A DNA stretch of 13,360 nt from an uncultured Trueperaceae bacterium. Its GTDB lineage: Bacteria; Deinococcota; Deinococci; Deinococcales; Trueperaceae. The notes beneath the pieces are model-generated. The model was given only the letters and a program-made list of their open reading frames with translations. It searched no databases and was not told the origin of the DNA. A program made the translations under genes and the position numbers. Below are positions 1-11,373 of the stretch, piece by piece; the first letter of the stretch is position 1, and each line of letters begins with the position of its first letter. The stretch is from NCBI GenBank assembly GCA_963727505.1, contig CAVSGP010000012.1, positions 1 to 13,360 of the forward strand, in the 5' to 3' direction.

Positions 1-629
1 TTGCCAGCACCGCGTCATCGGCGAACCGCCGGGCCGGCGCCGCAGCTCCCTCGCCGAGCGTGGCCGCCGCTGTGGCCGCTCCTGTAGCCGCTGCTGTAGC
101 CGCCGCGGTAGCCGCATCCCCTCCCGACTCGTCTTCAGCATCACCGGCCGCACGCTGCACCGCACGCCGCAGTCGAACGCGCAATCCCGCCCGCCAGCGG
201 GCGGCCAGGGCCGGCCGGTCGGCGGCGCGTGCCGCTCGTATGCCGATGCCGAGAAGCGCCGGCCGCAAGGCCTCCGGGAACTCCCGCGTGCCGAGGGTCT
301 CGGCCACCAGGCGCACCGTCGTCTCCGCCTCGCCGCGCAGCATGGCGGCCAGCGCCACCGCCAGCGGCGCCCACTCGGGGACGTGGATGCCGGCGCGGGT
401 GCTGGCGCCGGTACTCGCGCCGGTGCTCGCGCCGGTGCTCGCGCCAGAGGGCGGCACCCCCTCGCCCGACGACCGGCCCCCGTGCCCGGGCCGCCCGGGC
501 CGCCAGCGCCGCCGCCGAGGCGCGCGCGTCGACGTCCAGCTCGCCGCGACGCAGGTAGGTCTCGGTGAGCGCCAGCAAGGTCTCGCGTGGCCCTCTCCGA
601 TCGGACGCTGGGCTCAGGGGGATGGTCAT
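1..629 (-). CDS. Hypothetical alpha-helical protein; 3' end runs off the window; one +1 frameshift at ~457-481
   Basis: ATG at 629 overlaps the upstream stop (ATGA, 626-629) and follows GGAGG. Reads MTIPLSPASDRRGPRETLLALTETYLRRGELDVDARASAAALAARAARARG, then the plausible coding frame shifts +1 to ...GASTGASTGASTRAGIHVPEWAPLAVALAAMLRGEAETTVRLVAETLGTREFPEALRPALLGIGIRAARAADRPALAARWRAG..., open to position 1. G5 runs (plus-strand C5 at 457-461 and 477-481) lie in the shift zone. Confidence 0.6.
60..116. repeat. Degenerate 12-bp tandem repeat (~5 units, GTRGCCGCYSCK) encoding an (AATA)n linker on the minus strand
   Basis: gtggccgccgct/gtggccgctcct/gtagccgctgct/gtagccgccgcg/gtagccgca read directly. 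Confidence 0.8.
399..446. repeat. 12-bp tandem repeat x4 encoding (GAST)n on the minus strand
   Basis: gtgctggcgccg/gtactcgcgccg/gtgctcgcgccg/gtgctcgcgcca. Confidence 0.85.
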
Positions 630-1801
630 GGCTTCCCTCCCGCCAGGCGGCGCGCCGTGCGGCCCTCCATCGCTTCGGTCACCGACGCATAGATGCCCCA
701 CTGCAGGTCTTCGATCGCTTCCAGGCGGGCCCGCGCCGCGGCGAGCCAGCCCTCGTCCCCTCCAGCATGCGCCCCGTCCGGCGGCTCGACCCACAATTCG
801 GAGCAGCCGCAGTGCGCCAGCCAGCCGTCGACCAGCGCCACCGTGGTCGGGAAGAAGCTGCTGAGCCCCAGCTCGGCCAGGGCCACGCTGCGGCGGTAGC
901 GCGCCTTGCGGCTGTGCGCCCCGCTCAGCGTGCGCCCGACGGCGCGCTCGAAGTCCGCGCGGTTGTAGGCCCAGCCCTCCACGAAGCGCTCGGGCGGGTC
1001 CCAGCGCCGGCCCGCGCGGGCGGCGTCGGTGACCAGCGCGTAGAACACCGCGAAGGGCGCGCCCTCGAGCGACTCGTCCACCCGCTCCAGCGCGGCCTGC
1101 ACCTGCTCCAGCACCACCGGGAACGACGGCGGCAGCGCCGCCAGCACGTGCAGCGCCGTCGGCGCCTCGCCGGCGAGCAGGCGGTGCGCGGCATGCGCCC
1201 AGAGCTCGTCGAGGGTGCCGCCTAGCTTGCGGCGGATGAGCTTGCCCTGGCTGTGTTTCTCGAAGTGGACCTGCGAGAGGTAGGCGTCGGAGTGGAAGCC
1301 CATGTGCCAGAGCACGGCCCCCATCGACAGGTGCGGCGTCACCGGCGCCAGCGCCAGGCTGGGCCAGTCGAAGCGGCGCGACAGCCCCAGCAGCACGGCG
1401 CGCTCGGTCACGTCGGCCAGCTCCCGCAGCCCGATGTCGCTGAGATCGTCGAGGAAGGCCCCCACGGTGCGCTGGAGGCGCGCCTCCGGGCCCAGCCCGG
1501 CACGGGCGCCCACCAGGTCGAGGAGCATCATCAGCCAGCGCCCGACATCACGGTTCGGCGCGTAGCTCAGCCAGGCGTGGGCGTAGCTCGTCTCCAGCAC
1601 GTGGAGCGCCAGCAGGTTGCGGCCGCGCACGTCCTCGCCGCGGCCGGCCAGCGCCAGGCGGCGGAGATGCGCCGCGAGCTCGTGGAGGTAGCTGTCGGGC
1701 GGTCCGGTGGCGTGTGTGGCGGTCGCTGTCAGGCACAGCGACTCCAGGGTACGGACGGCCGCGGCCCAGCCGCACACAGAGCCGCACGCACAGCTGCACA
1801 C
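626..1801 (-). CDS. Hypothetical, predominantly alpha-helical cytoplasmic protein (~370-390 aa); start uncertain
   Basis: Long ORF (626..1918) with GC3-rich codons and protein-like composition from ~1700 down (DSYLHELAAHLRRLALAG...LQWGIYASVTEAMEGRTARRLAGGKP). In-frame GTGs at 1918, 1822 and 1801; 1918 is too close to the putative -10 box. No family motif recognised. Confidence 0.75.
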   Translation of the reverse strand: MCSCACGSVCGWAAAVRTLESLCLTATATHATGPPDSYLHELAAHLRRLALAGRGEDVRGRNLLALHVLETSYAHAWLSYAPNRDVGRWLMMLLDLVGARAGLGPEARLQRTVGAFLDDLSDIGLRELADVTERAVLLGLSRRFDWPSLALAPVTPHLSMGAVLWHMGFHSDAYLSQVHFEKHSQGKLIRRKLGGTLDELWAHAAHRLLAGEAPTALHVLAALPPSFPVVLEQVQAALERVDESLEGAPFAVFYALVTDAARAGRRWDPPERFVEGWAYNRADFERAVGRTLSGAHSRKARYRRSVALAELGLSSFFPTTVALVDGWLAHCGCSELWVEPPDGAHAGGDEGWLAAARARLEAIEDLQWGIYASVTEAMEGRTARRLAGGKP

Positions 1802-1921
1802 GACACCGCCCCGCAGACCCACGCCGAACGATCCGGCACGTCCTTGCGGGTCACCGCCGCGCAAGGCGCGGAGCCGCCAACCATCCGTCTTCCCCCAACC
1901 ATGTCGCCCCTTCTGCACACC

Positions 1922-1930
1922 ATCTTAGCA
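1922..1930 (-). promoter_or_regulatory. Putative extended -10 promoter TG-c-TAAGAT for the two leftmost genes
   Basis: Minus strand reads ...ccattTGcTAAGATggtg... in an AT-richer intergenic patch. Confidence 0.5.
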
Positions 1931-2080
1931 AATGGTCTGGTGAAAGGACGCACAAGCGCCAGGAGGCCGTCGGCGGCGCTGGAGAGCGCGGGCACCTGCA
2001 ACCTGCGAATTCGGTGGCCCGGGGCGTGCCGGCGGTCCCCACTGCGTTCGGAGATGCCGGCCGGCCCTACGGGACGCGCG

Positions 2081-2770
2081 TCAGTAGGAGATGTCGGTGT
2101 TCACCCAGTGGCAGCCGACCCACTTGTAGCTCGCCGAGGCGCCGCCGGAGGCCCGGATCACGTCGCCGTTGCCCCGCTCCTTGACGGAGCCCTGGTAGTG
2201 GATCGTGACGGTGCCGTGGCTGGGGCCGACGTCGAGGCTCATGATCTGGTAGCTCTTGTGGAAGTCGTAGTAGAGATGCCCGTACTTGTGCCTGGCACGG
2301 TTGAGGAAGCTGTCGAGCGTGCGGTGGAACGCCGCCTTCAGGTTCGCCTTGCTCGGGTCCGCCGAGCAACCGAAGTCTCCGCGCCCGTTCGAGCCGTGCC
2401 CGTGGTCCCCTTCACCGCGCCCGCCGTTCGGGCGGCCACTCTCATGGGTTTGGTCGGGCGGCCCGTCTCCGGGGTCGAAGGGCCAACTCCCGCGGGCACC
2501 CCAACCATCCGCCCCCACCCAGGGAGCCCCGTACACCTCGGGGTGGTGGTCGCTCGACGATCGCGGCACGCTGGCCCACGCGACAGCGAACAGGAGAAAG
2601 ACCATGATCGACACGGCGGTGAGGGCCGCGACGCGGAATCGGCCGGGCGACCCCGACCGATGGGGTGACTCCGGGCGCGGCCGTGGGCCGCGCGAAGAAC
2701 GCCGTCGAGCCCGCGGCGACCGCCCTCCGGAACGCACATGCCATTGCGCCGTGATCGGCCTTCTCGCCAT
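2081..2770 (-). CDS. Exported protein (229 aa): signal peptide, putative amphipathic beta-hairpin, Gly/His-rich linker, Cys-flanked C-terminal domain paralogous to the next gene
   Basis: ATG 2770 after GGGGTGGAACG; Arg-rich n-region, h-region VAALTAVSIMVFLLFAVAWA with an AxA site; C-terminal 91 aa align gaplessly with the 2908..3930 product (43/91 identical by hand count). Confidence 0.8.
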   Translation of the reverse strand: MARRPITAQWHVRSGGRSPRARRRSSRGPRPRPESPHRSGSPGRFRVAALTAVSIMVFLLFAVAWASVPRSSSDHHPEVYGAPWVGADGWGARGSWPFDPGDGPPDQTHESGRPNGGRGEGDHGHGSNGRGDFGCSADPSKANLKAAFHRTLDSFLNRARHKYGHLYYDFHKSYQIMSLDVGPSHGTVTIHYQGSVKERGNGDVIRASGGASASYKWVGCHWVNTDISY

Positions 2771-2848
2771 CGTTCCACCCCCAGTTCCCGGTATCGACCT
2801 CGCGCCCGGTGCCGGCATACGGGCGACCAGCACGGGAACGCTGTTCGC

Positions 2849-2854
2849 ACTCTA
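2849..2854 (-). promoter_or_regulatory. Possible -10 box TAGAGT upstream of the 2770 start
   Basis: Minus strand ggtggaTAGAGTgcgaac in the intergenic gap; no convincing -35. Confidence 0.3.
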
Positions 2855-2907
2855 TCCACCGGGTGCGGACGGGCTCGAAAATTCGGACTTCGCGGGTTGG
2901 ACGGGTC

Positions 2908-3930
2908 CTAGTAGCTGACGTCCACCGTCGACCAACCGCAGCCGTTCCAGCGGTACACCGCCGAGGCGTTGCCCGACGCCGACTCCCGCTTGCCCGTAGC
3001 GATGGTCCGTACGCTGCCCTTGTAGTGGATCTTGACCACGCCGTGGTCGCCGCTGATGCGCACCGAGGTGATGTCGAAGCTGTAGTTGAGGTCGGTGTAG
3101 ATGCTGCCGTAGGTGGCGCGCGCGCTATCCAGGAAGCCCTTCAGGGTCCGGTGGAAGGCTTCGAGCAGCATCCCGCGGTCGGGCGTGTCGGACTTCTCGC
3201 ACACCGGCCCAGGAGAACCGGCCAACGACATGGGGGCCGCCGCCTCCGGCCCGTACCCGCCGTGCGTCGGCACGAAGGGGAAGGCGTAGCTCACGCCCAC
3301 CGACAAGTAGGGCGCCCAGGTGCGCTTCGCCAGCAGCGGCACGTTCGCCACGCCCCCCTCCAGGTCGAGGCGGACGTGCAGCGACAGCGGCACATGCGCA
3401 CCGACCGTGGCGAAATAGGTGACATTGCCGCCGTAGTAGCCGCCGCCGATGCCCACGAACAGCGGCACCGGCACGGGCACCGGCGGGTAGCCACGCAGCT
3501 CGAGGCCGACGTAGGGGCCGACCACCGTGTAGCTGCCCTTCACCTGGAAGCCGAGGTACTGGTACTGGGCGGAGAGGTAGCCGGCGACGGTCTGGTAGCT
3601 CGGGAAACCGGCGCTGACGCCGAAGGCGCCGAGGACGGGGGGTGGGGACGTGTCGGTGACCGTGGTCGTCGAGGAGCCTTCGGCCGAGGAACCCGCGCCC
3701 GACGAACCGGCATTCGTCGAACCGGCGCTCGACGAACCGGACACATCGGTCGGCTGGGAAGCCGGCGCTTGCGGGCCCGGGCCTGACGCGCTCGGGGGCG
3801 CCGCCGCGAAGCCGAACCCGGCGACCAGACAGGCCGCCAGGATGACAGCCGCCCCGGCCGCGGCCAGCGGGCGGCCTGCTCGGCGGCCGGCTCGGTGCCC
3901 GGCTCGTAGGTTGCCTGTGCGGGTATCCAC
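2908..3930 (-). CDS. Putative outer-membrane protein: signal peptide, Ser/Gly/Thr linker, ~8-stranded beta-barrel (3274-3631), Cys-flanked C-terminal domain
   Basis: GTG start after AGGGGGGAG. Eight alternating Gly/aromatic-rich segments (AFGVSAGF, VAGYLSAQY, LGFQVKGSYT, YVGLELRGY, LFVGIGGGYY, TYFATVGAHV, VRLDLEGGV, YLSVGVSYAF), the last with a beta-signal-like G-V-S-Y-x-F. Confidence 0.75.
   Translation of the reverse strand: MDTRTGNLRAGHRAGRRAGRPLAAAGAAVILAACLVAGFGFAAAPPSASGPGPQAPASQPTDVSGSSSAGSTNAGSSGAGSSAEGSSTTTVTDTSPPPVLGAFGVSAGFPSYQTVAGYLSAQYQYLGFQVKGSYTVVGPYVGLELRGYPPVPVPVPLFVGIGGGYYGGNVTYFATVGAHVPLSLHVRLDLEGGVANVPLLAKRTWAPYLSVGVSYAFPFVPTHGGYGPEAAAPMSLAGSPGPVCEKSDTPDRGMLLEAFHRTLKGFLDSARATYGSIYTDLNYSFDITSVRISGDHGVVKIHYKGSVRTIATGKRESASGNASAVYRWNGCGWSTVDVSY
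3671..3745. repeat. Degenerate 15-bp tandem repeat x5 encoding an (xAGSS)n linker
   Basis: gaggagccttcggcc/gaggaacccgcgccc/gacgaaccggcattc/gtcgaaccggcgctc/gacgaaccggacaca. Confidence 0.7.
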
Positions 3931-3993
3931 GCTCCCCCCTCTCGACCGATGCTCCGTGCGGGCCGTCCAGCCGGCTCGGAGGGGTCGAGGATC

Positions 3994-4002
3994 ACGTTAC
4001 CA
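3994..4002 (-). promoter_or_regulatory. Putative extended -10 promoter TG-g-TAACGT for the barrel gene
   Basis: Minus strand ccgcTGgTAACGTgatcctcg in the intergenic gap, ~64 nt upstream of the GTG at 3930. Confidence 0.45.
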
Positions 4003-4053
4003 GCGGCGGGCCTGTCGCTCCGCAACCTCAAGCGATTGATGAACGCGCCTGCC

Positions 4054-5467
4054 TCAACGTTCCCGCGCCTCCCAGCCAGCGTCGACGTAATCGAGGTAGC
4101 CGCGCACCTGCCGGACGTACTCCGCCCAGGCGGCGTAGACAGTGCGCCGGGCGTCACGCGTGTCGGCCAGCGAGCGTTGCCGCTCGGCGAGCCCCAACGC
4201 GCGCTCCGCGAGCTGCGCGGCCGCACGACGCCTCGCCGCCTGCTTCGGGAAGTCCCGCTCGTAGGCGGTGAGCGCCTCACGGGCTCTCCTCACCCGGCGC
4301 TGCAGATCCGGGAGCGACCCCAGCGCCGTGGAGAGGACGGCGGTGGAGAGGACGACCGTGGCGTGCACGCCCACCGACCAGGCGTCCGGCCCGCCGGGGA
4401 ACGCCAGGCTCAGCTCGGCGCGCGGCGTGGCCTCGACGATCCCGACGTCCGTGCGCACGGCCACGTTGCCGGTCGTGTAGCTGCCGCTGAAGGCGAGCCC
4501 CTCGAGCGTGCCGTAGACGCCCGCCTGCCTGAGATCGGCCTCGGCGCGCCGCAGCTCGAGCTGCCTGAGCCGGTAGGCGCCCGTTGAGCGCGCCTCGGCG
4601 GGCGGCAGCACGAACCGCAGCGGCGCGTAGACCGCGGCCCCGCTCAGACCGTAGCCCTCCAGCTCGGCCTGCAGCCCACCGAGCTCCAGGCGGGACTGCC
4701 CGACCTGCAGGCGCAGACCCTCCACGCCGAGCCTACGGAGCTCGAGGTCGCGGCTCGCGCGGCCGGCCAGCGGCGAGGCGGCTCCGTCGGATGGGCCAGC
4801 GGCCGAAATCGAACCCGCCGAGATCGAACGCACCGCGGCCGAACCCGCGGTGATCAAACCTGCCGACTCCGATGCCGCGTTCGCCTGCGCCCCGAGCACC
4901 GCGCAGCTCCTGCCCCTGCGAGGTGACCTGCTCCTCGAGCTGCGCTACGGTGAGCTGGACCTGCAACAGGCGCGCGTGGGCCGTGAGTGCCCTGGCTACG
5001 GCGCGGCGCCGCAGGCGGGCCACCGCCGCGCGAGCGCGCTCCAGGCCGTCCAGCTCGGCGAGCAAAGCCGGCTCGTCGTAGCTGTAGCGCAGCGTCGCAT
5101 CGAGTTGGAGACGGGTCGACCACTCGGGCGGCACCGCGTCCGCTTCGTAGGTGCCGAAGCTCACGCCGGGCCGGAACGTGACGCTGGCGTCGAAGCCGTG
5201 GAGGACCCCGAGCGCCCGCTCCCGGGCGGCGACCTCGGCGCGGGCGTCGGCCAGCGCCGGCTCGACGGCCCGCAGGGCGTCCTCCGGCGTCGAGTCAGCC
5301 ATGGCGGCCCAGAGCATCGAGGCCAGGACGGTCGCCATCCCCCAGACATGTACGCGGAACCGCGAAGCGTGCGTCCGGTCCGTGCGCGGCCCGTACACGC
5401 TCGAGCGTTCCGCGGACGGACGTTCGGTTCGTGCCCCCTCCACGCAGACCCCAACCCCCCGCCCCAT
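4054..5467 (-). CDS. TolC/outer-membrane efflux-like protein split by a +1 frameshift (~4865-4920); pseudogene or sequencing error
   Basis: N-half in the 4733..5773 frame (likely ATG 5467 after GGGGGAG; signal peptide ...WGMATVLASMLWAAMA|DST; helix, beta segment FDASVTFRPGVSFG...LQLDATLRYSY, long helices). C-half in the 4054..4899 frame (helices, beta segment LAFSGSYTT...WSVGVHATVVL, helices). The duplicated helix-beta-helix layout matches OEP/TolC architecture; family call is from architecture only. Confidence 0.55.
4805..4864. repeat. Degenerate 15-bp tandem repeat x4 in the linker of the TolC-like gene
   Basis: gaaatcgaacccgcc/gagatcgaacgcacc/gcggccgaacccgcg/gtgatcaaacctgcc; reads AGLIT-AGSAA-VRSIS-AGSIS in the downstream frame. 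Confidence 0.65.
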
Positions 5468-5783
5468 ACCGACTCCCCCCTTCGAAGCAGCCTCGCGTCG
5501 CCACCGAGAACGTGCCTGCGACGACCTCTCCGGGAGGAACCGTGCTCCCCGCCTGCGCGCTGCTTCCATGCCCATCTCAATACCGCGCTCGGTACCATTT
5601 TCAGTACCGCCGCGTCGCGGCCTTCTGCCTCGGTTCGAGATCGACTGTAGCGCACGCCGGTGGCCGCGTACTCGTCCGGCGTGCAGGACGGATGGTTGTC
5701 CTGTGAAAAGATCTACTCGAGCCCACCATGGCGACGCATCGATCGAGACGCGAGCGCCGCGACATCTTCCCAACAGCGCGAGG

Positions 5784-5792
5784 TGCTAGACT
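5784..5792 (+). promoter_or_regulatory. Putative extended -10 promoter TG-c-TAGACT for wzc
   Basis: gaggTGcTAGACTccaac in the divergent intergenic region ~130 nt upstream of the wzc start. Confidence 0.5.
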
Positions 5793-5922
5793 CCAACCCG
5801 TATCGGTTGCCGGCCTCGGCGACGTCCATCGCAACGTACCGCCGGTGTGGACTGCGCGAGGCTGATGATCGACCTAGATTCGAGAATCAGACGAGCTTCG
5901 AATTCTGGGGGGAGGGGGATCG

Positions 5923-7614
5923 TTGAACCCTGAACCGTACCAAGACGAGATTTCGCTCCACGAACTGTGGGAGTTGATGCGGCGTGGGCTTCCGTTCGCC
6001 GTCGCCGTGACCGTACTGGCTGCCTTCACGACCTTCATGCTCGTCCGACAAGCGCCACGCGTCTATCAAGCGTCTTCCACGATCCTGGCATCACAACCCG
6101 ATTCCGGCCTCAAGTCCTTCAACGTCTCGCTCGTTACCGCACCGCCGGTAGATGTGCCGGCGTACGAAGCTGCGGCAAAGGGGTTCCCGGTGTTGAAGCG
6201 GGCACTGGGCGATCTCGGTAATGCGTCACCGACGAGAGCGGCGATCGACGACCTTCGCAAGAAGCTCTCGATCACGGCCGAACAGGACGCGAGTTCGAGC
6301 CTCATCTACGTGCAGGTGCGTGGTGAGAATCCGAAGCAGGCGGCTGCGCAGGCCAACGCCATCGCCGCGTCACTCCTCAACTGGGACAAGAATCGCGCTT
6401 CGAGCCACCTCCAAACGATCGTCAAGACGCTCGAGGGGCAGATCCAGTCGCTCGACGCTCAGATCGCCACCGACAATGCCAGCGGTTCCGGCGCGGCGTC
6501 CGATATCGCTGGCCTGCAACAGCTCAAGGCCCAGCAGACGTTGCAACTCAACGCCGCGCAGGCGCTGACGAACTCGGCGGTCGGGCGCCTGGAGATCGTC
6601 ACTCCCGCCCAGACACCTATCGAACCGGTGGCGCCTCGGCCCAAGTTGGCGGCGGCCATCGCAGCCGTCCTTGCGCTCATGGCGGCATATCTCTTCGTCT
6701 TCCTGCGATCGGCTCTGAATTCCAGGTATGGTTCCATCGACGAACTGGCCCGCGATACCGATCTCACCATCCTCGGTGAGTTCCCGAGACTGGGTCCGAA
6801 AGCCGGGCTCCTCCCGCGGGAGCGCGTCAATTTCCTGCGAACCAACCTCTCGTTCGCTTCGGCATCCATCCATCCGAAGGTGTTCGTGGTCACGAGCGCG
6901 GATCCTGGCGATGGCAAGACGACCGTGGCCGTGAACCTTGCCGAGGCCTACGCACGGAACGAATATCGGACGCTCCTGATCGACGCAGATCTACGGAAGC
7001 CTGACGTTGGCAATGTGCTCGGCGTTCAACCCGAAGGGTCATCGGATCTGCTCGCGCTCCTCCAGAACCCGTCGCGCGAGATCTCCTTGCGATCCATCGA
7101 CGTGGACGGCGTGCCGTTCCAGGTTCTGCCCACGAGCGCCGAATCCGCCCGGGCAACGGAGTTGCTGTCGCGGGCCTTCAAGGGTGTACTCAATCGTATC
7201 CAGGACTTCGACGTCATCGTCATCGACTCCGCGCCGATCCTACCCGTCGCCGATTCGCTCACCATCGCCCCGTACGCGAGCGGCGTCATCGTGGCAGCAA
7301 ACCTGGTCGACACGGACAAGCGTCGCATGCGAGGTGCCCTCGCCCTGCTCCACCGACTCGGCGTCCAGGTCATGGGGCTCGCCGTCACCCAGGTTCCGGA
7401 GAAGCAGGCCAAGCGCCGAGGGTCAGGCTACGGATACGGGTACGGATACGGATACGGGAACGGGTACGGTGCAGACGCTGAGAAGCACCGGACGACAGCG
7501 CGCGGTGAGGCTCGGAGAAGGAATATCGCCGCCTCTGTGATCAACGAACAGGACTCGCCGAAAGCGGCGGAGGTCGCCTACCGGGGCTTGAGACCCGACG
7601 AGAGCCGAAGTTGA
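5923..7614 (+). CDS. wzc: Polysaccharide co-polymerase / tyrosine autokinase (Wzc-type BY-kinase), 563 aa
   Basis: TTG start after GGAGGGGG. Wzz-like N-terminus (DEISLHELWELMRR + TM1 + YQASSTI), coiled-coil periplasmic part, PxxPVAPRP + TM2, Walker A SADPGDGKTT, A' LLIDADLRKP, B VIVIDSAP, and C-terminal Tyr cluster GYGYGYGYGYGNGYG. Confidence 0.95.
   Translation: MNPEPYQDEISLHELWELMRRGLPFAVAVTVLAAFTTFMLVRQAPRVYQASSTILASQPDSGLKSFNVSLVTAPPVDVPAYEAAAKGFPVLKRALGDLGNASPTRAAIDDLRKKLSITAEQDASSSLIYVQVRGENPKQAAAQANAIAASLLNWDKNRASSHLQTIVKTLEGQIQSLDAQIATDNASGSGAASDIAGLQQLKAQQTLQLNAAQALTNSAVGRLEIVTPAQTPIEPVAPRPKLAAAIAAVLALMAAYLFVFLRSALNSRYGSIDELARDTDLTILGEFPRLGPKAGLLPRERVNFLRTNLSFASASIHPKVFVVTSADPGDGKTTVAVNLAEAYARNEYRTLLIDADLRKPDVGNVLGVQPEGSSDLLALLQNPSREISLRSIDVDGVPFQVLPTSAESARATELLSRAFKGVLNRIQDFDVIVIDSAPILPVADSLTIAPYASGVIVAANLVDTDKRRMRGALALLHRLGVQVMGLAVTQVPEKQAKRRGSGYGYGYGYGYGNGYGADAEKHRTTARGEARRRNIAASVINEQDSPKAAEVAYRGLRPDESRS
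7426..7470 (+). repeat. (GGNTAC)n hexamer repeat encoding the BY-kinase tyrosine cluster
   Basis: ggctac ggatac gggtac ggatac ggatac gggaac gggtac ggt; a similar array occurs in the second copy at ~8662-8712. Confidence 0.85.
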
Positions 7615-7771
7615 TGCGTTCTCTTGGGGGATGATTGCGGGGTATGGCCGCCGCGGACCGCGAACGCCTCGGCCGCGCGCGTCTGTGAGGTGAGGGAGGG
7701 TGCCGACTGTCGTGCCTGCTCATGCCGGCGCCGCTCTAGGCGCCGCCAGACTCAACGGCGGCCCTGAAGTA

Positions 7772-8741
7772 CTCGACGCGCAGATCGCCGCTGATCCGGC
7801 GAACAGCTCTAGCACGGCATCCGATATTGGCGGACTGCAGCAGCTCAGGCGCCGCTGAATCCCGTTGCGCCTCGGCCCAAGCGGGCTGCCGCCATCGCTG
7901 CCGTCCTGGCGTTCATGGCTTCATACCTCATCGTCTTCTTGCGGTCGGCCCTCGACTCGAAGTACCCCTCCATCGACGAGCTGGGCCGCGATGCGGACCT
8001 GAGCATCCTCGGCGAGTTCCCGAAGCTGGGCGCCAAGGCTAGGCTTCCCCCCCGGAGCACGTCAATTCTCTCCGGACCAATGTTGCGTTCGCATCGGCAT
8101 CCATTCCATCCGAAGGTGTTCGTGTTCACGAGCGCGGACCCCGGCGACGGCAAGACCACGCTCGCCGTGAACCTCGCCGAGGCCTATGCTAGGAACGAGT
8201 ACCGGACGCTCCCAATCGACGCCGACCTGCGCAAGCCGGATGTCGGCAACATGCTCGGCATCGAGCCCGACGAGTCGTGGGACCTGCTGGCGCTCCTTCA
8301 GAACCCGTCGCTCGAGATCTCCTTGCGATCCGTCGACGTGGGCGGCGCCTTCTTCCAGGTCCTCCCCACCAAGCGCGAATCGTCGCGCGCGACGGAGTTG
8401 CTCTCGCGGAACTTCAAGGGTGTTCTCAGCCGAATTCACGACTTCGACGTCATCGTCATCGACTCCGCACCGATCCTGCCCGTAGCCGACTCACTCACCA
8501 TCGCACCCTACGCCAGCGGAGTCATCCTCGCCGCGAGCCTCGTCGACACGGACAAGCGGCCCATGCGCAGCGCCCTCGGGCTGCTCCAGCGGCTGGGCGT
8601 CCAAGTCATGGGCCTGGCCGTGACCCAAGTTCCGGAGACGCACGCCAAGCGCCGAGGGTCAGGTTACGGATACGGATACGGTTATGGGACCGGCTACGGG
8701 AACGGAAACGGGTCCGACCGGGAGAAGCCGCGGTCCTCGAC
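7772..8741 (+). pseudogene. wzc: Decayed second wzc-type BY-kinase (5'-truncated, internal deletion, compensating frameshifts, stop codon lost)
   Basis: Aligns to the first copy from 6451 onward (LDAQIAAD...SDIGGLQQL). ~85-nt deletion at 7843-7848; -1/+1 frameshift pair at ~8055 and ~8106; kinase domain roughly 85% aa identical to copy 1; homology ends just after the Tyr cluster. Confidence 0.88.
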
Positions 8742-9170
8742 GCACTCATCCGCAAGATCCACGAAGCCAAAGAATCGCGCAGCCCTACCGTCACCATCTG
8801 GGGCACCGGCACCGTCAAACGCGAGTTCCTCCACACCGACGACCTCGCCGCCGCCGCCCTCTTCCTCCTCGAGCACGTCTCGGAACCCGGCCCCATCAAC
8901 GTCGGCACCGGCAAGGACATCACCATCAACGAACTGGCCGCCCTCATCGCGGACGTCGTCGGCTACCGGGGCGAGTTCGAGCACGACACCAGCAAGCCCG
9001 ACGGCACGCCCCGCAAACTCCTCGACGTCTCACGCCTCAAGGACCTCGGCTGGGAAGCGAAGATCGGGCTGCGCGAAGGGATCGAGCGGACGTACCGGGC
9101 CTACCTCGAGAGCTCGGGCGTACGTGCCGGCGACGAGGCGCACGAACGTCGTAGCGGCGGGCGAGACTGA
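8733..9170 (+). pseudogene. fcl: 3' fragment (~145 codons) of GDP-L-fucose synthase
   Basis: VLDALIRKIHEAK...VTIWGTGTVKREFLHTDDLA...INVGTGKDITINELA...DTSKPDGTPRKLLDVSRLKDLGW matches the Fcl/WcaG C-terminal half. The Rossmann GxxGxxG and YxxxK motifs and a start codon are absent. Confidence 0.92.
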
Positions 9171-10032: not shown

Positions 10033-11373
10033 CTACCGCCACTCCCTCCGCAGCGCCCTACTCGCCAGGTCGCTGCGGAACGCGACCTCCGGGAGCGCCT
10101 CGAACATCGACTCGTAGCCCTGCGGAACCGCGATGTCGCCCAACGTGAGCATCCGCACCCCCACACGGCGACCGGCGACCAGCATGCGGCCACCCCGAGC
10201 ACGCACCTCATCGAGCGCCTGCCGCACACCCGCCATGTCACCCCCATAGAACCGCGGATCCACGATCCGATCCGCCGTATCCGCCCCCACCACGAACACG
10301 CTACCCGGGAACAACCGCGCCTTCCCCGTGAACAACGGCTCCCGCGTCAGCACCAACGGCGCCGTACCCGTGAACTGCAACGCCCGCCGCCGGCCCTCGA
10401 ACAGGCCGATCGGGCTCTTGTCCGCGTTGACCAGCGGCAGCTCGAACACCGGGCGGGCATGACCGCCGTCCACGCGCCGCGCCGCCACCTCCGCCAGCTC
10501 CAGGTGCCCGTCATGCACCGGATTGAACGAGCCGGAGAGCAGCACCACCGTCGGCGCGTCGCCCCCGCCCCCCGGCAGCTCACTGGTCAGCGTGCCGTCG
10601 GGACGCACCACCACGTAAGGACGCGCGCCGGCATCGAACTCCGCCAACAGCGGAGCGGGCTCGAAGCTCACCTCGAGCTCCTCTCCGACCTCCAACGCCA
10701 ACAGCGTGGGACGGAGCACGCCGCAGGCGTCCGCGACGGCGCGCAACACCAGCTGACTCGCCACCCGCTCCTCGCCCGCCCGATCGCGAGCGCCCTTGGT
10801 GAGCGTGAGGGCATACGTGGCGGTACCAAGCCCATCGCGCACCGCCACCACCACCCGGTGGCCACCCTTCTTGAACCGGTCCGTGGCGATCGAGGCCGTG
10901 CAACCCAGGCCGAAAACCGGAACGGGAACCCCGGCCTCGCTCGGCACGGCGTCGCCCGGCCGGTGCGTGGGCACGATCCGGGCGCCCGCCGTGAGGGCGC
11001 GGGCGCGGCGCCACGCCTCCAGCGCCATGGCCCGCGCGGCCCGCTGCGAGGTGGCGCGCGCCGGCGTGAAGCCGATCCACTGCGCCAGCGACTGGCCCAT
11101 GTAGGGGTCGACGGCTTCCAACACCGTTCGCGACGAACCGCCCACGGCGTGCAGCCAGCCCAGCGCCTGGGCTCCGGCGCCGGCGAATACCATGACCATC
11201 CGGTGCGGCGTGGCATGGAGCTCGCGCACCAGCGGCAGCATCCGCTCGTAGGCGTCGCCGGTCTTCGGCGGACGGCCGGCGTGCGCACCGGCATCCGGAC
11301 CGGCATGCGGACCGGCGCCCGGAACCGCGCGCGGACCCGCCCGAGGACCGCGGTGATGCCCGTCGTCGCTCAT
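10033..11373 (-). CDS. CinA/PncC-like domain fused to an HxGH nucleotidyltransferase (putative NMN/NaMN adenylyltransferase-like)
   Basis: C-terminal LLSGSFNPVHDGH, FEL..VNADK, PLFTGKARLFPGSVFVVGADTADRIVDPRFY, terminal DLASRALR (ISST-like). N-terminal GAGAQALGWL..GGSSRTVLEAVDPY...ARAMA...GLGCTASIATDR resembles the CinA C-terminal fold. Confidence 0.8.
   Translation of the reverse strand: MSDDGHHRGPRAGPRAVPGAGPHAGPDAGAHAGRPPKTGDAYERMLPLVRELHATPHRMVMVFAGAGAQALGWLHAVGGSSRTVLEAVDPYMGQSLAQWIGFTPARATSQRAARAMALEAWRRARALTAGARIVPTHRPGDAVPSEAGVPVPVFGLGCTASIATDRFKKGGHRVVVAVRDGLGTATYALTLTKGARDRAGEERVASQLVLRAVADACGVLRPTLLALEVGEELEVSFEPAPLLAEFDAGARPYVVVRPDGTLTSELPGGGGDAPTVVLLSGSFNPVHDGHLELAEVAARRVDGGHARPVFELPLVNADKSPIGLFEGRRRALQFTGTAPLVLTREPLFTGKARLFPGSVFVVGADTADRIVDPRFYGGDMAGVRQALDEVRARGGRMLVAGRRVGVRMLTLGDIAVPQGYESMFEALPEVAFRSDLASRALRREWR
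11276..11347. repeat. Degenerate 12-bp tandem repeat x6 encoding a (GPxA)n N-terminal extension
   Basis: ccggcgtgcgca/ccggcatccgga/ccggcatgcgga/ccggcgcccgga/accgcgcgcgga/cccgcccgagga. Confidence 0.75.

Follow-up and report, generated by a model that had tools for sequence, protein, structure and literature searches.

How a polysaccharide crosses the outer membrane of the Deinococcota, or is held there, is an open question, because the genomes sampled from this deep-branching diderm phylum, whose envelope is unlike the proteobacterial model, contain Wzc-like co-polymerases and gave no detectable OPX protein. The question is raised here by a contig of an uncultured Trueperaceae bacterium (C12; source genome 3.26 Mb, 97.4% complete), analysed over its full length of 13,360 bases and called the window in what follows. 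Two adjoining genes of the window, named A and B, encode exported proteins with a common C-terminal domain, and a gene for a Wzc-like polysaccharide co-polymerase/BY-kinase lies near them in divergent orientation. A preliminary description of the window, made from its letters only, had offered the two genes as its best candidate for an undescribed system. This was an overstatement: B represents an unannotated, Deinococcota-specific family of outer-membrane proteins, in which two known fold types are combined in a way that we found described nowhere (literature searches retrieved no paper describing the B protein family or a barrel combined with an NTF2-like domain). The family defines a new small, presumably periplasmic domain, for which current family libraries hold no definition, and it offers a concrete candidate for the outer-membrane polysaccharide step in Deinococcota, or else for outer-membrane tethering.

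Two sets of genomes were sampled, 61 from the family (the window's own genome, G000, among them) and 201 from the phylum, spread over the families f1 to f5; in addition, 27 loci with B were collected from genome contigs, some of them from the same genomes as the family set. Wzc-like co-polymerase/BY-kinase genes, counted at E 1e-20, occur in 43 of the 61 family genomes. For Poly_export (PF02563), no match over the cut-off was found in any of the 61 family or the 201 phylum genomes, apart from which there were three sub-threshold matches, and the same search was positive on the controls E. coli, Caulobacter, Bacteroides and Thermotoga. Poly_export and SLBB gave no match in A or B, and nothing for OPX/Wza was found anywhere in the window's genome. 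Because the outer-membrane step of Wzc-dependent export is unaccounted for in the phylum, B can be regarded as a candidate adaptor. In other diderms, the carriers of polymers across the outer membrane are OPX proteins, some of them paired with an 18-stranded barrel (PMC9603273); neither 'Deinococc' nor 'Thermus' occurs in the main text of that paper.

Gene B (Table 1) starts with a GTG preceded by GAGAGGGGGGAG, a ribosome-binding-like site by reading, and its GC content at third codon positions (GC3) is 0.90. The search for homologues returned 93 proteins, every one unnamed or 'hypothetical', and those with a named source come from Trueperaceae or Deinococcales metagenome-assembled genomes. 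Pfam and NCBIfam, reported at E <= 0.01, gave no family for the whole B protein and none for the whole A protein, and a sequence profile of B matched no PDB chain at E <= 1. The AlphaFold2 model of B, built with 51 homologues, has a mean predicted local distance difference test score (pLDDT) of 80.9, exceeding 90 in the barrel and in the C-terminal domain. The N-termini of the B homologues are hydrophobic and mostly end in A-x-A or AQ (alignment A1), and a signal peptide is probable in B and in its homologues, with a cleavage site placed by eye rather than by a signal-peptide predictor. B was also considered as a lipoprotein (LAAC), which was rejected as unlikely; that Cys is not conserved among the homologues of alignment A1.

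Behind a predicted disordered spacer, the model shows eight strands, assigned by DSSP to residues 99-109, 116-123, 126-135, 138-147, 157-166, 169-181, 186-199 and 202-219, mostly with pLDDT >90 and joined by connections of just 2-9 residues. Conserved motifs of this region are GFPSYQT, RGYPPVP, GAHVPL, RLDLEGG and VGVSYAF. Foldseek matched it to designed transmembrane barrels and to the transmembrane domains of OmpA, OprF, OmpX and NspA (E 1.2e-4 to 4.5e-3), and further to Opa60 and Ail, with a Foldseek probability of 1.00 for 6x9z, 6x1k, 9fzc, 2jmm, 4rlc, 1qjp, 2m06 and 1p4t. None of the Pfam barrel families (OMP_b-brl, OmpA_membrane) exceeded its cut-off in B, and OMP_b-brl matched one of 60 members (E 0.0033). 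A closed barrel of eight antiparallel membrane-spanning strands is well supported by the model; with its short loops and a charged R-D-E ladder it is expected to be a minimal anchor with no pore. Even-stranded outer-membrane barrels usually place both termini in the periplasm, and by analogy with this topology the C-terminal domain of B would be periplasmic.

The C-termini of A and B align without gaps over 94 residues with 44 identities (BLASTP, E 1e-25), a similarity far beyond chance at this E value. In an exhaustive domain search, the domain was C-terminal in all 82 representative hits. Modelled alone from A with 60 diverse relatives, it reached a pLDDT of 94.8 and a predicted template modelling score (pTM) of 0.83, with a helix at residues 12-34 and strands at 38-52, 56-69, 75-89 and 92-99 of 100 residues. 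The best structural matches of this model, obtained with VIA-align against 48,161 chains, are nearly all NTF2/cystatin-like (Z 9.2-6.5 over 80-94 residues): the ketosteroid-isomerase-like 3d9r comes first (Z 9.2, 94 residues, root mean square deviation 2.8), followed by 3rob (8.7), the designed cystatin fold 4r80 (8.1), CaMKII hubs (8.0-7.7), the RsgI9 NTF2 domain (7.6), the ARC6 intermembrane-space domain (7.4) and VirB8-like chains (about 7). Since the tool rates Z 7-8 as common for models without a clear match, we claim a resemblance of fold and not a proven homology. With Foldseek, the isolated domain had its best match in 3rob (E 3.3e-3), and ARC6 (5d9r) was found at E 6.9e-3; in the full B model, the tail matched the NTF2-like entries 3soy and 7sjy. 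In sequence, the isolated B domain gave below-threshold matches only, to SnoaL_2 (E 0.07; 14.2 bits, cut-off 27) and DUF4440 (E 0.093; 13.6 bits, cut-off 25.2); each of these families matches three of 60 domain members (best E 0.02 and 0.0038, respectively), below the curated cut-offs. The leads of an Atlas search with the B domain all scored <0.9, the best being an unnamed cluster (0.84), with a TcpC cluster at 0.80. A full NTF2-like cone has about three helices, a five- to six-stranded sheet and an enclosed pocket. The matched chains have 120-150 residues, and what the model shows in 100 residues is one helix and four strands, so that the domain resembles a pared-down NTF2/cystatin-like fold, with one long helix on a four-stranded curved sheet.

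Each copy of the domain has exactly two Cys (C156 and C241 in A, in the numbering of the 250-residue reading frame; C244 and C331 in B), the first located six residues before the predicted helix and the second in the last hairpin (WxGCxW). Both are kept in 55 of 60 aligned relatives, where they are usually the sole Cys of the protein; most of the others are fragments cut at the N-terminus or rows in which the alignment is shifted. Because the pair is conserved and usually consists of the only Cys in an exported protein, a disulfide would probably join the two within the domain. In some short forms from f2 (L070, L071), the first domain Cys stands right behind a lipobox-like signal-peptide end (ALAAC, SALAC), and there it could be a lipidation site instead of a disulfide partner.

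The plan of B is like that of OmpA/OprF-type proteins in its signal peptide, eight-stranded barrel anchor, short linker and globular C-terminal domain expected in the periplasm, and differs from it in the very short loops and in the NTF2/cystatin-like domain that stands in place of OmpA_C. The peptidoglycan-binding OmpA_C domain (PF00691) has no match in A or B and no candidate in the window's genome. VirB8/TcpC/PrgL/DotI of type IV secretion, ARC6 and RsgI9 (7sjy, 5gtb, 4ec6, 6iqt, 7aed and 3wz4; Z 7.6-6.7) also expose modules of the same fold class, fixed to a membrane anchor, in the periplasm or the intermembrane space, where they serve docking or oligomerisation. Unlike these modules, with which it has no sequence similarity, the domain described here comprises one helix and four strands and has a conserved Cys pair, and it is attached to an outer-membrane barrel or a signal peptide, not to an inner-membrane helix, with the exception of a form with a transmembrane (TM) helix in genome G047. 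SnoaL_2 (PF12680) and DUF4440 (PF14534) are its best sequence echoes, but their N-terminal helices are missing from it. With OPX proteins (Wza) and the 18-stranded Wzp/GfcD-type barrels that pair with short OPX proteins (PMC9603273, PMC9601211), B has in common that it is an outer-membrane protein encoded beside a Wzc-like co-polymerase; it has eight strands, not eighteen, no expected conduit and no Poly_export or SLBB domain. Since the phylum was sampled without an OPX match over the cut-off, B cannot be the composite OPX/barrel translocon that the two papers describe. As regards architecture, the preliminary description is largely borne out by these searches and models: it had pointed to an ungapped shared domain (43 of 91 residues identical by its count) bracketed by two Cys, to a helix-plus-sheet of cystatin/NTF2-like pattern belonging to no named family, and, in B, to a barrel of about eight strands behind which this domain takes the place of the periplasmic domain of OmpA.

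The domain was found in 25 of the 61 family genomes, five of which hold two copies. A profile search extended the barrel-plus-domain protein to 70 of the 201 phylum genomes, namely f1 13/40, f2 52/92 (52/83 in one genus), f3 3/57, f4 1/9 and f5 0/2. An f2 homologue aligns with the B profile over 232 columns, covering barrel, domain and both Cys (hhalign probability 97.5, E 5e-12), and Pfam gave no match for six f2 homologues, for one short form or for the G047 form. Other carriers of the domain are a protein with a signal peptide and an Ig-like segment (G024), short forms in f2, some with lipobox-like ends, and the G047 form, in which an N-terminal TM helix and a Gln/Ser/Thr-rich linker precede the domain and which is frequent among metagenome hits. 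A pattern scan of the genome contigs for the TM-anchored, Ser/Thr-rich form (alignment A3) retrieved no relatives; that of the metagenome contigs retrieved one (L051), whose neighbours, a DsbA-like fragment, a hydrolase and a glyoxalase-type gene, are uninformative.

Gene A likely starts at the ATG at 2770, behind GGGGGTGGA; the automatic gene call, at 174 aa, removes part of the hydrophobic stretch. Used whole as a query, the A protein retrieved nothing but itself. The A-type members have in common an Arg-rich n-region, a hydrophobic stretch ending in AWA or AFA, which resembles a signal-peptidase site, a Gly/Asp/His/Pro-rich linker and the domain (alignment A4). The short hairpin that the preliminary description had seen in this half of A is thus more likely a signal peptide followed by a low-complexity linker. 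A tree built from the domain places A in a clade of eight rows (support 88/93), whose sister group, with 25 rows (91/80), is the main barrel clade. Since A belongs to this separate sister clade, it is not a recent copy of B, and a recent tandem duplication of B into A was rejected on the strength of the tree, the support of which is moderate and derives from only 100 columns. A is a member of an older subfamily of paralogues, and its domain would be free or inner-membrane-tethered in the periplasm.

The neighbourhoods of B point to the envelope. In the Wzc-like protein of the window, the two TM segments (judged by eye) are only about 200 residues apart. Among the 25 family genomes with the domain, seven (G000, G027, G034, G058, G005, G046 and, twice, G047) carry it 0.7-2.7 kb from a Wzc-like gene, making up eight gene pairs in five genera. 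A near-full-length Wzc-like gene flanks B in 11 of the 27 genome-contig loci, a number that rises to 13 if weak partial matches are included; the two genes are divergent in seven loci (L029, L030, L032, L033, L035, L036 and L043) and in tandem in L037 and L039, and the gene between them is TolC-like in the window and in L024 and is the 430-aa gene in L026. Wzc-like genes are present in 22/25 B-bearing and 21/36 B-lacking genomes (Fisher p 0.021, kin not being independent and the B-lacking count including the unpublished G033). In G011, B lies beside genes for a GT4 glycosyltransferase, a polysaccharide deacetylase and Bac_transf, and in G034 near Wzy_C, Bac_transf and Polysacc_synt_2 genes. 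The second copy of G047, the TM-anchored form (L073 513-2825, G047:C16), is located 4 nt behind a membrane GGDEF-EAL gene, and a second Wzc-like gene points away from it on the other side, an arrangement that suggests control of the Wzc/domain machinery linked to cyclic di-GMP. In two f3 loci (L064, 7016-9550, and L065, 6960-8738), the next gene downstream of the B-like one encodes an LptF_LptG permease, and a Wzy_C gene is divergent. What the neighbourhoods of B have in common across families is envelope biogenesis. As minor observations, the B-like gene of L064 is downstream of an unassigned 206-aa open reading frame (ORF), and in L022 (9912-10460; G031, a genome without a Wzc-like match at E 1e-20) the B homologue has a dual-specificity/tyrosine-phosphatase-like gene some 0.7 kb downstream.

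On these grounds we tentatively favour B as an outer-membrane-anchored periplasmic docking module in envelope polysaccharide assembly, a possibility that we rate a little short of even; its architecture is well supported, and the function is read from the neighbourhoods and from analogy. The Sec signal peptide and the disordered spacer would lead into the small OmpA/OmpX-like barrel that anchors B, and the C-terminus would present the domain of about 95 residues to the periplasm, where its most likely role would be to dock a protein partner or a glycan. B would act in this way as the outer-membrane-side adaptor of a polysaccharide assembly or export run by the Wzc-like co-polymerase, and A, on its signal peptide and Gly/Asp/His-rich linker, would carry the domain in the periplasm either freely or tethered to the inner membrane. 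Several observations weigh against this role. An eight-stranded barrel cannot itself be the polymer conduit. In 18 of the 25 B-bearing family genomes, B is more than about 3 kb from any Wzc-like gene, and the B-bearing genomes G031, G048 and G053 gave no Wzc-like match at E 1e-20. No Wzc-like gene was found within 9 kb in 12 loci of f2 and f3, and the f2 homologues stand in housekeeping contexts (dxr-rseP-B-CMD, or thiolase/3-hydroxyacyl-CoA dehydrogenase-B-CMD). AzlC/AzlD genes are beside B in three loci and, because they too recur there, plain synteny is retained around B; the adjacency of Wzc could be such synteny, inherited within one family. The fold assignment itself is based on Z values of 7-9, a range common for models without a clear match, and the isolated domain had no Foldseek match down to E 0.001.

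The same evidence has to be weighed for other roles. B might be a general structural tether, an analogue of OmpA that would hold the outer membrane to the wall through binding of its domain to peptidoglycan or to a secondary wall polymer, so that the polysaccharide genes nearby would be incidental. The order of the domains, which is that of OmpA, the lack of any OmpA_C candidate in the window's genome, the spread of the B family across the phylum and the housekeeping envelope contexts in f2, where in L063 and L068 B immediately follows dxr and rseP (Peptidase_M50), are all in keeping with this, but B and OmpA_C show no anticorrelation (OmpA_C is found in 7/25 B-bearing and 11/36 B-lacking family genomes), no peptidoglycan-binding family matches A, B or the members of the domain family, and the recurrent Wzc neighbourhood would be left unexplained; a tether appears to us rather unlikely. 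A stronger form of the docking role would see B as the missing outer-membrane partner in OPX-free Wzc export, its domain capturing the short periplasmic crown of Wzc or the nascent polymer and passing it on to a channel, for example the TolC-like protein encoded nearby, with the A-type and TM-anchored paralogues as accessory or competing adaptors. This we judge unlikely. The TolC-like gene, whose conservation beside the pair the preliminary description had proposed to check, accompanies B in only three of 27 loci and is frameshifted in the window.

The pair itself could, as the preliminary description proposed, be a two-component module, in which a hetero-oligomer forms through the two copies of the domain and A caps, bridges or regulates B. 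CaMKII hubs and VirB8 oligomerise, and many of the NTF2-like fold matches are oligomers of this sort. An A-type gene adjoins B in both family genomes that have one (G000 and G010), B preceding A in the window and A lying immediately upstream of B in G010; since the gene order differs, the adjacency has survived rearrangement. However, these are only 2/61 family genomes and 2/25 B-bearing ones, an adjoining A is missing from L024, where B is 91% identical, and from the same-genus G027, a second copy stands beside B in none of the 27 genome-contig loci, in the three f2 genomes with both a barrel and a short form the two lie at a distance from each other, and adjacent copies occur in only two of the eight genomes holding two or more domain genes. 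The pairing may be meaningful where A exists, and B is not dependent on A; a conserved two-gene module is weakly supported and seems improbable. Handling of lipid or glycolipid for outer-membrane biogenesis, in which the domain, in the manner of LptE or MlaC, would bind an amphipathic lipid of the envelope on the inner side of the outer membrane, would suit the LptF_LptG permease gene directly downstream in both f3 loci examined. To our knowledge, the phylum is regarded as lacking classical lipopolysaccharide. The structural echoes of LptE (5ixm_D 0.66 and 4n4r_B 0.51, as Foldseek probability) and of the MlaC-like 8dte (Z 6.8), like the single weak Pfam LptE match among 60 members (E 0.11), are all at noise level. 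As to the lipobox of LptE, the Cys of the LAAC in B lacks conservation, and lipobox-like ends do occur in some f2 short forms. Typical NTF2-like binders build their ligand pocket with additional helices, which the domain lacks, and only three of 57 f3 genomes carry the protein; we consider this role very unlikely. Least probable by far is a periplasmic protease inhibitor of the cystatin type: the domain does resemble the designed cystatin fold 4r80 and some 'cystatin-like' structural-genomics entries, but the inhibitory motif of cystatins, Q-x-V-x-G, occurs in the domain of neither A nor B, there is no cystatin Pfam match, and no protease gene recurs as a neighbour.

Table 1. Coordinates of genes A and B, their parts and the neighbouring genes in the window.
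Feature	Position	Strand	Basis
Gene A, exported paralogue of the A-type subfamily, probably 229 aa	2081..2770	-	ORF (open to GTG 2833, 2081..2833, max 250 aa); GGGGGTGGA before ATG 2770
A residues 22-87 (250-aa numbering), long Arg-rich n-region and hydrophobic stretch FRVAALTAVSIMVFLLFAVAWA, putative signal peptide or signal anchor	2573..2770	-	aligned with AWA/HP and AFA/RP ends (slash, presumed cleavage)
A residues 88-155, Gly/Asp/His/Pro-rich low-complexity linker	2369..2572	-	gappy, poorly conserved columns in alignment A4
A residues 156-250, shared domain: Cys156, helix, four strands, Cys241	2084..2368	-	domain model; BLASTP against B
Gene B, exported outer-membrane protein, 340 aa	2908..3930	-	ORF; GTG 3930 start; GAGAGGGGGGAG before start
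B residues 1-44, basic n-region and hydrophobic stretch ending AAA, probable Sec signal peptide	3799..3930	-	model helix 21-38; alignment
B residues 45-87, Ser/Gly/Thr/Pro-rich spacer of variable length, predicted disordered	3670..3798	-	pLDDT 41-51 (residues 41-80); gappy, unconserved columns in alignment A1
B residues 88-219, predicted eight-stranded beta-barrel anchor with very short connections	3274..3669	-	model strands; Foldseek; invariant columns
B residues 220-243, low-confidence linker from barrel to domain	3202..3273	-	block pLDDT 60 and 48 (residues 221-240)
B residues 244-340, C-terminal domain: Cys244, helix 252-274, four long strands (278-339), Cys331 in WNGCGW, terminal Tyr	2911..3201	-	BLASTP, model
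TolC-like (outer-membrane factor-like) gene, split ORFs 4733..5773 and 4054..4899	4054..5773	-	one extra base near 4903; DNA alignment with L024
Wzc-like polysaccharide co-polymerase/BY-kinase, 563 aa, with Wzz, GNVR, P-loop and GYGYGYGYGYG tail, divergent	5923..7614	+	Pfam; adjacency counts
Downstream 430-aa protein	626..1918	-	no Pfam/NCBIfam match

The gene between B and the Wzc-like gene was assigned to the TolC type from Atlas features (0.97 to 'outer membrane efflux / TolC family' clusters) and from a Pfam OEP match of the G024 homologue only (E 0.0023); its profile gave a coiled-coil match alone against PDB (E 0.25). Its split near 4903 reflects either genuine loss of the reading frame, as in a pseudogene, or a mistake in the assembly; in L024 the gene is intact (506 aa). 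In G024, the homologue is found behind the protein with the Ig-like segment and the domain, ahead of an MFS transporter. The downstream 430-aa gene has a homologue directly after B in the same-genus G027 (56% identity) and another about 6 kb downstream in L024.

A scan of positions 1800-6000 for promoters and terminators gave nothing exceeding shuffles. The GC content of the window is 63-79%, and it is 0.63-0.67 over 5500-9000, lower than in the flanks. At 7837-9170, on the plus strand, there is a second, N-terminally truncated Wzc-like copy, 76% identical to residues 227-532 of the first, which runs into an out-of-frame fragment like the C-terminal half of a GDP-sugar epimerase/reductase; the whole looks like a rearrangement scar in a polysaccharide cluster. 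Further on, at 10033-11373 on the minus strand, a 446-aa protein with a weak cytidylyltransferase-like motif is encoded; its counterpart on an unrelated contig (L050, 1794-2945) is 46% identical and lies about 2 kb from a domain-bearing gene.

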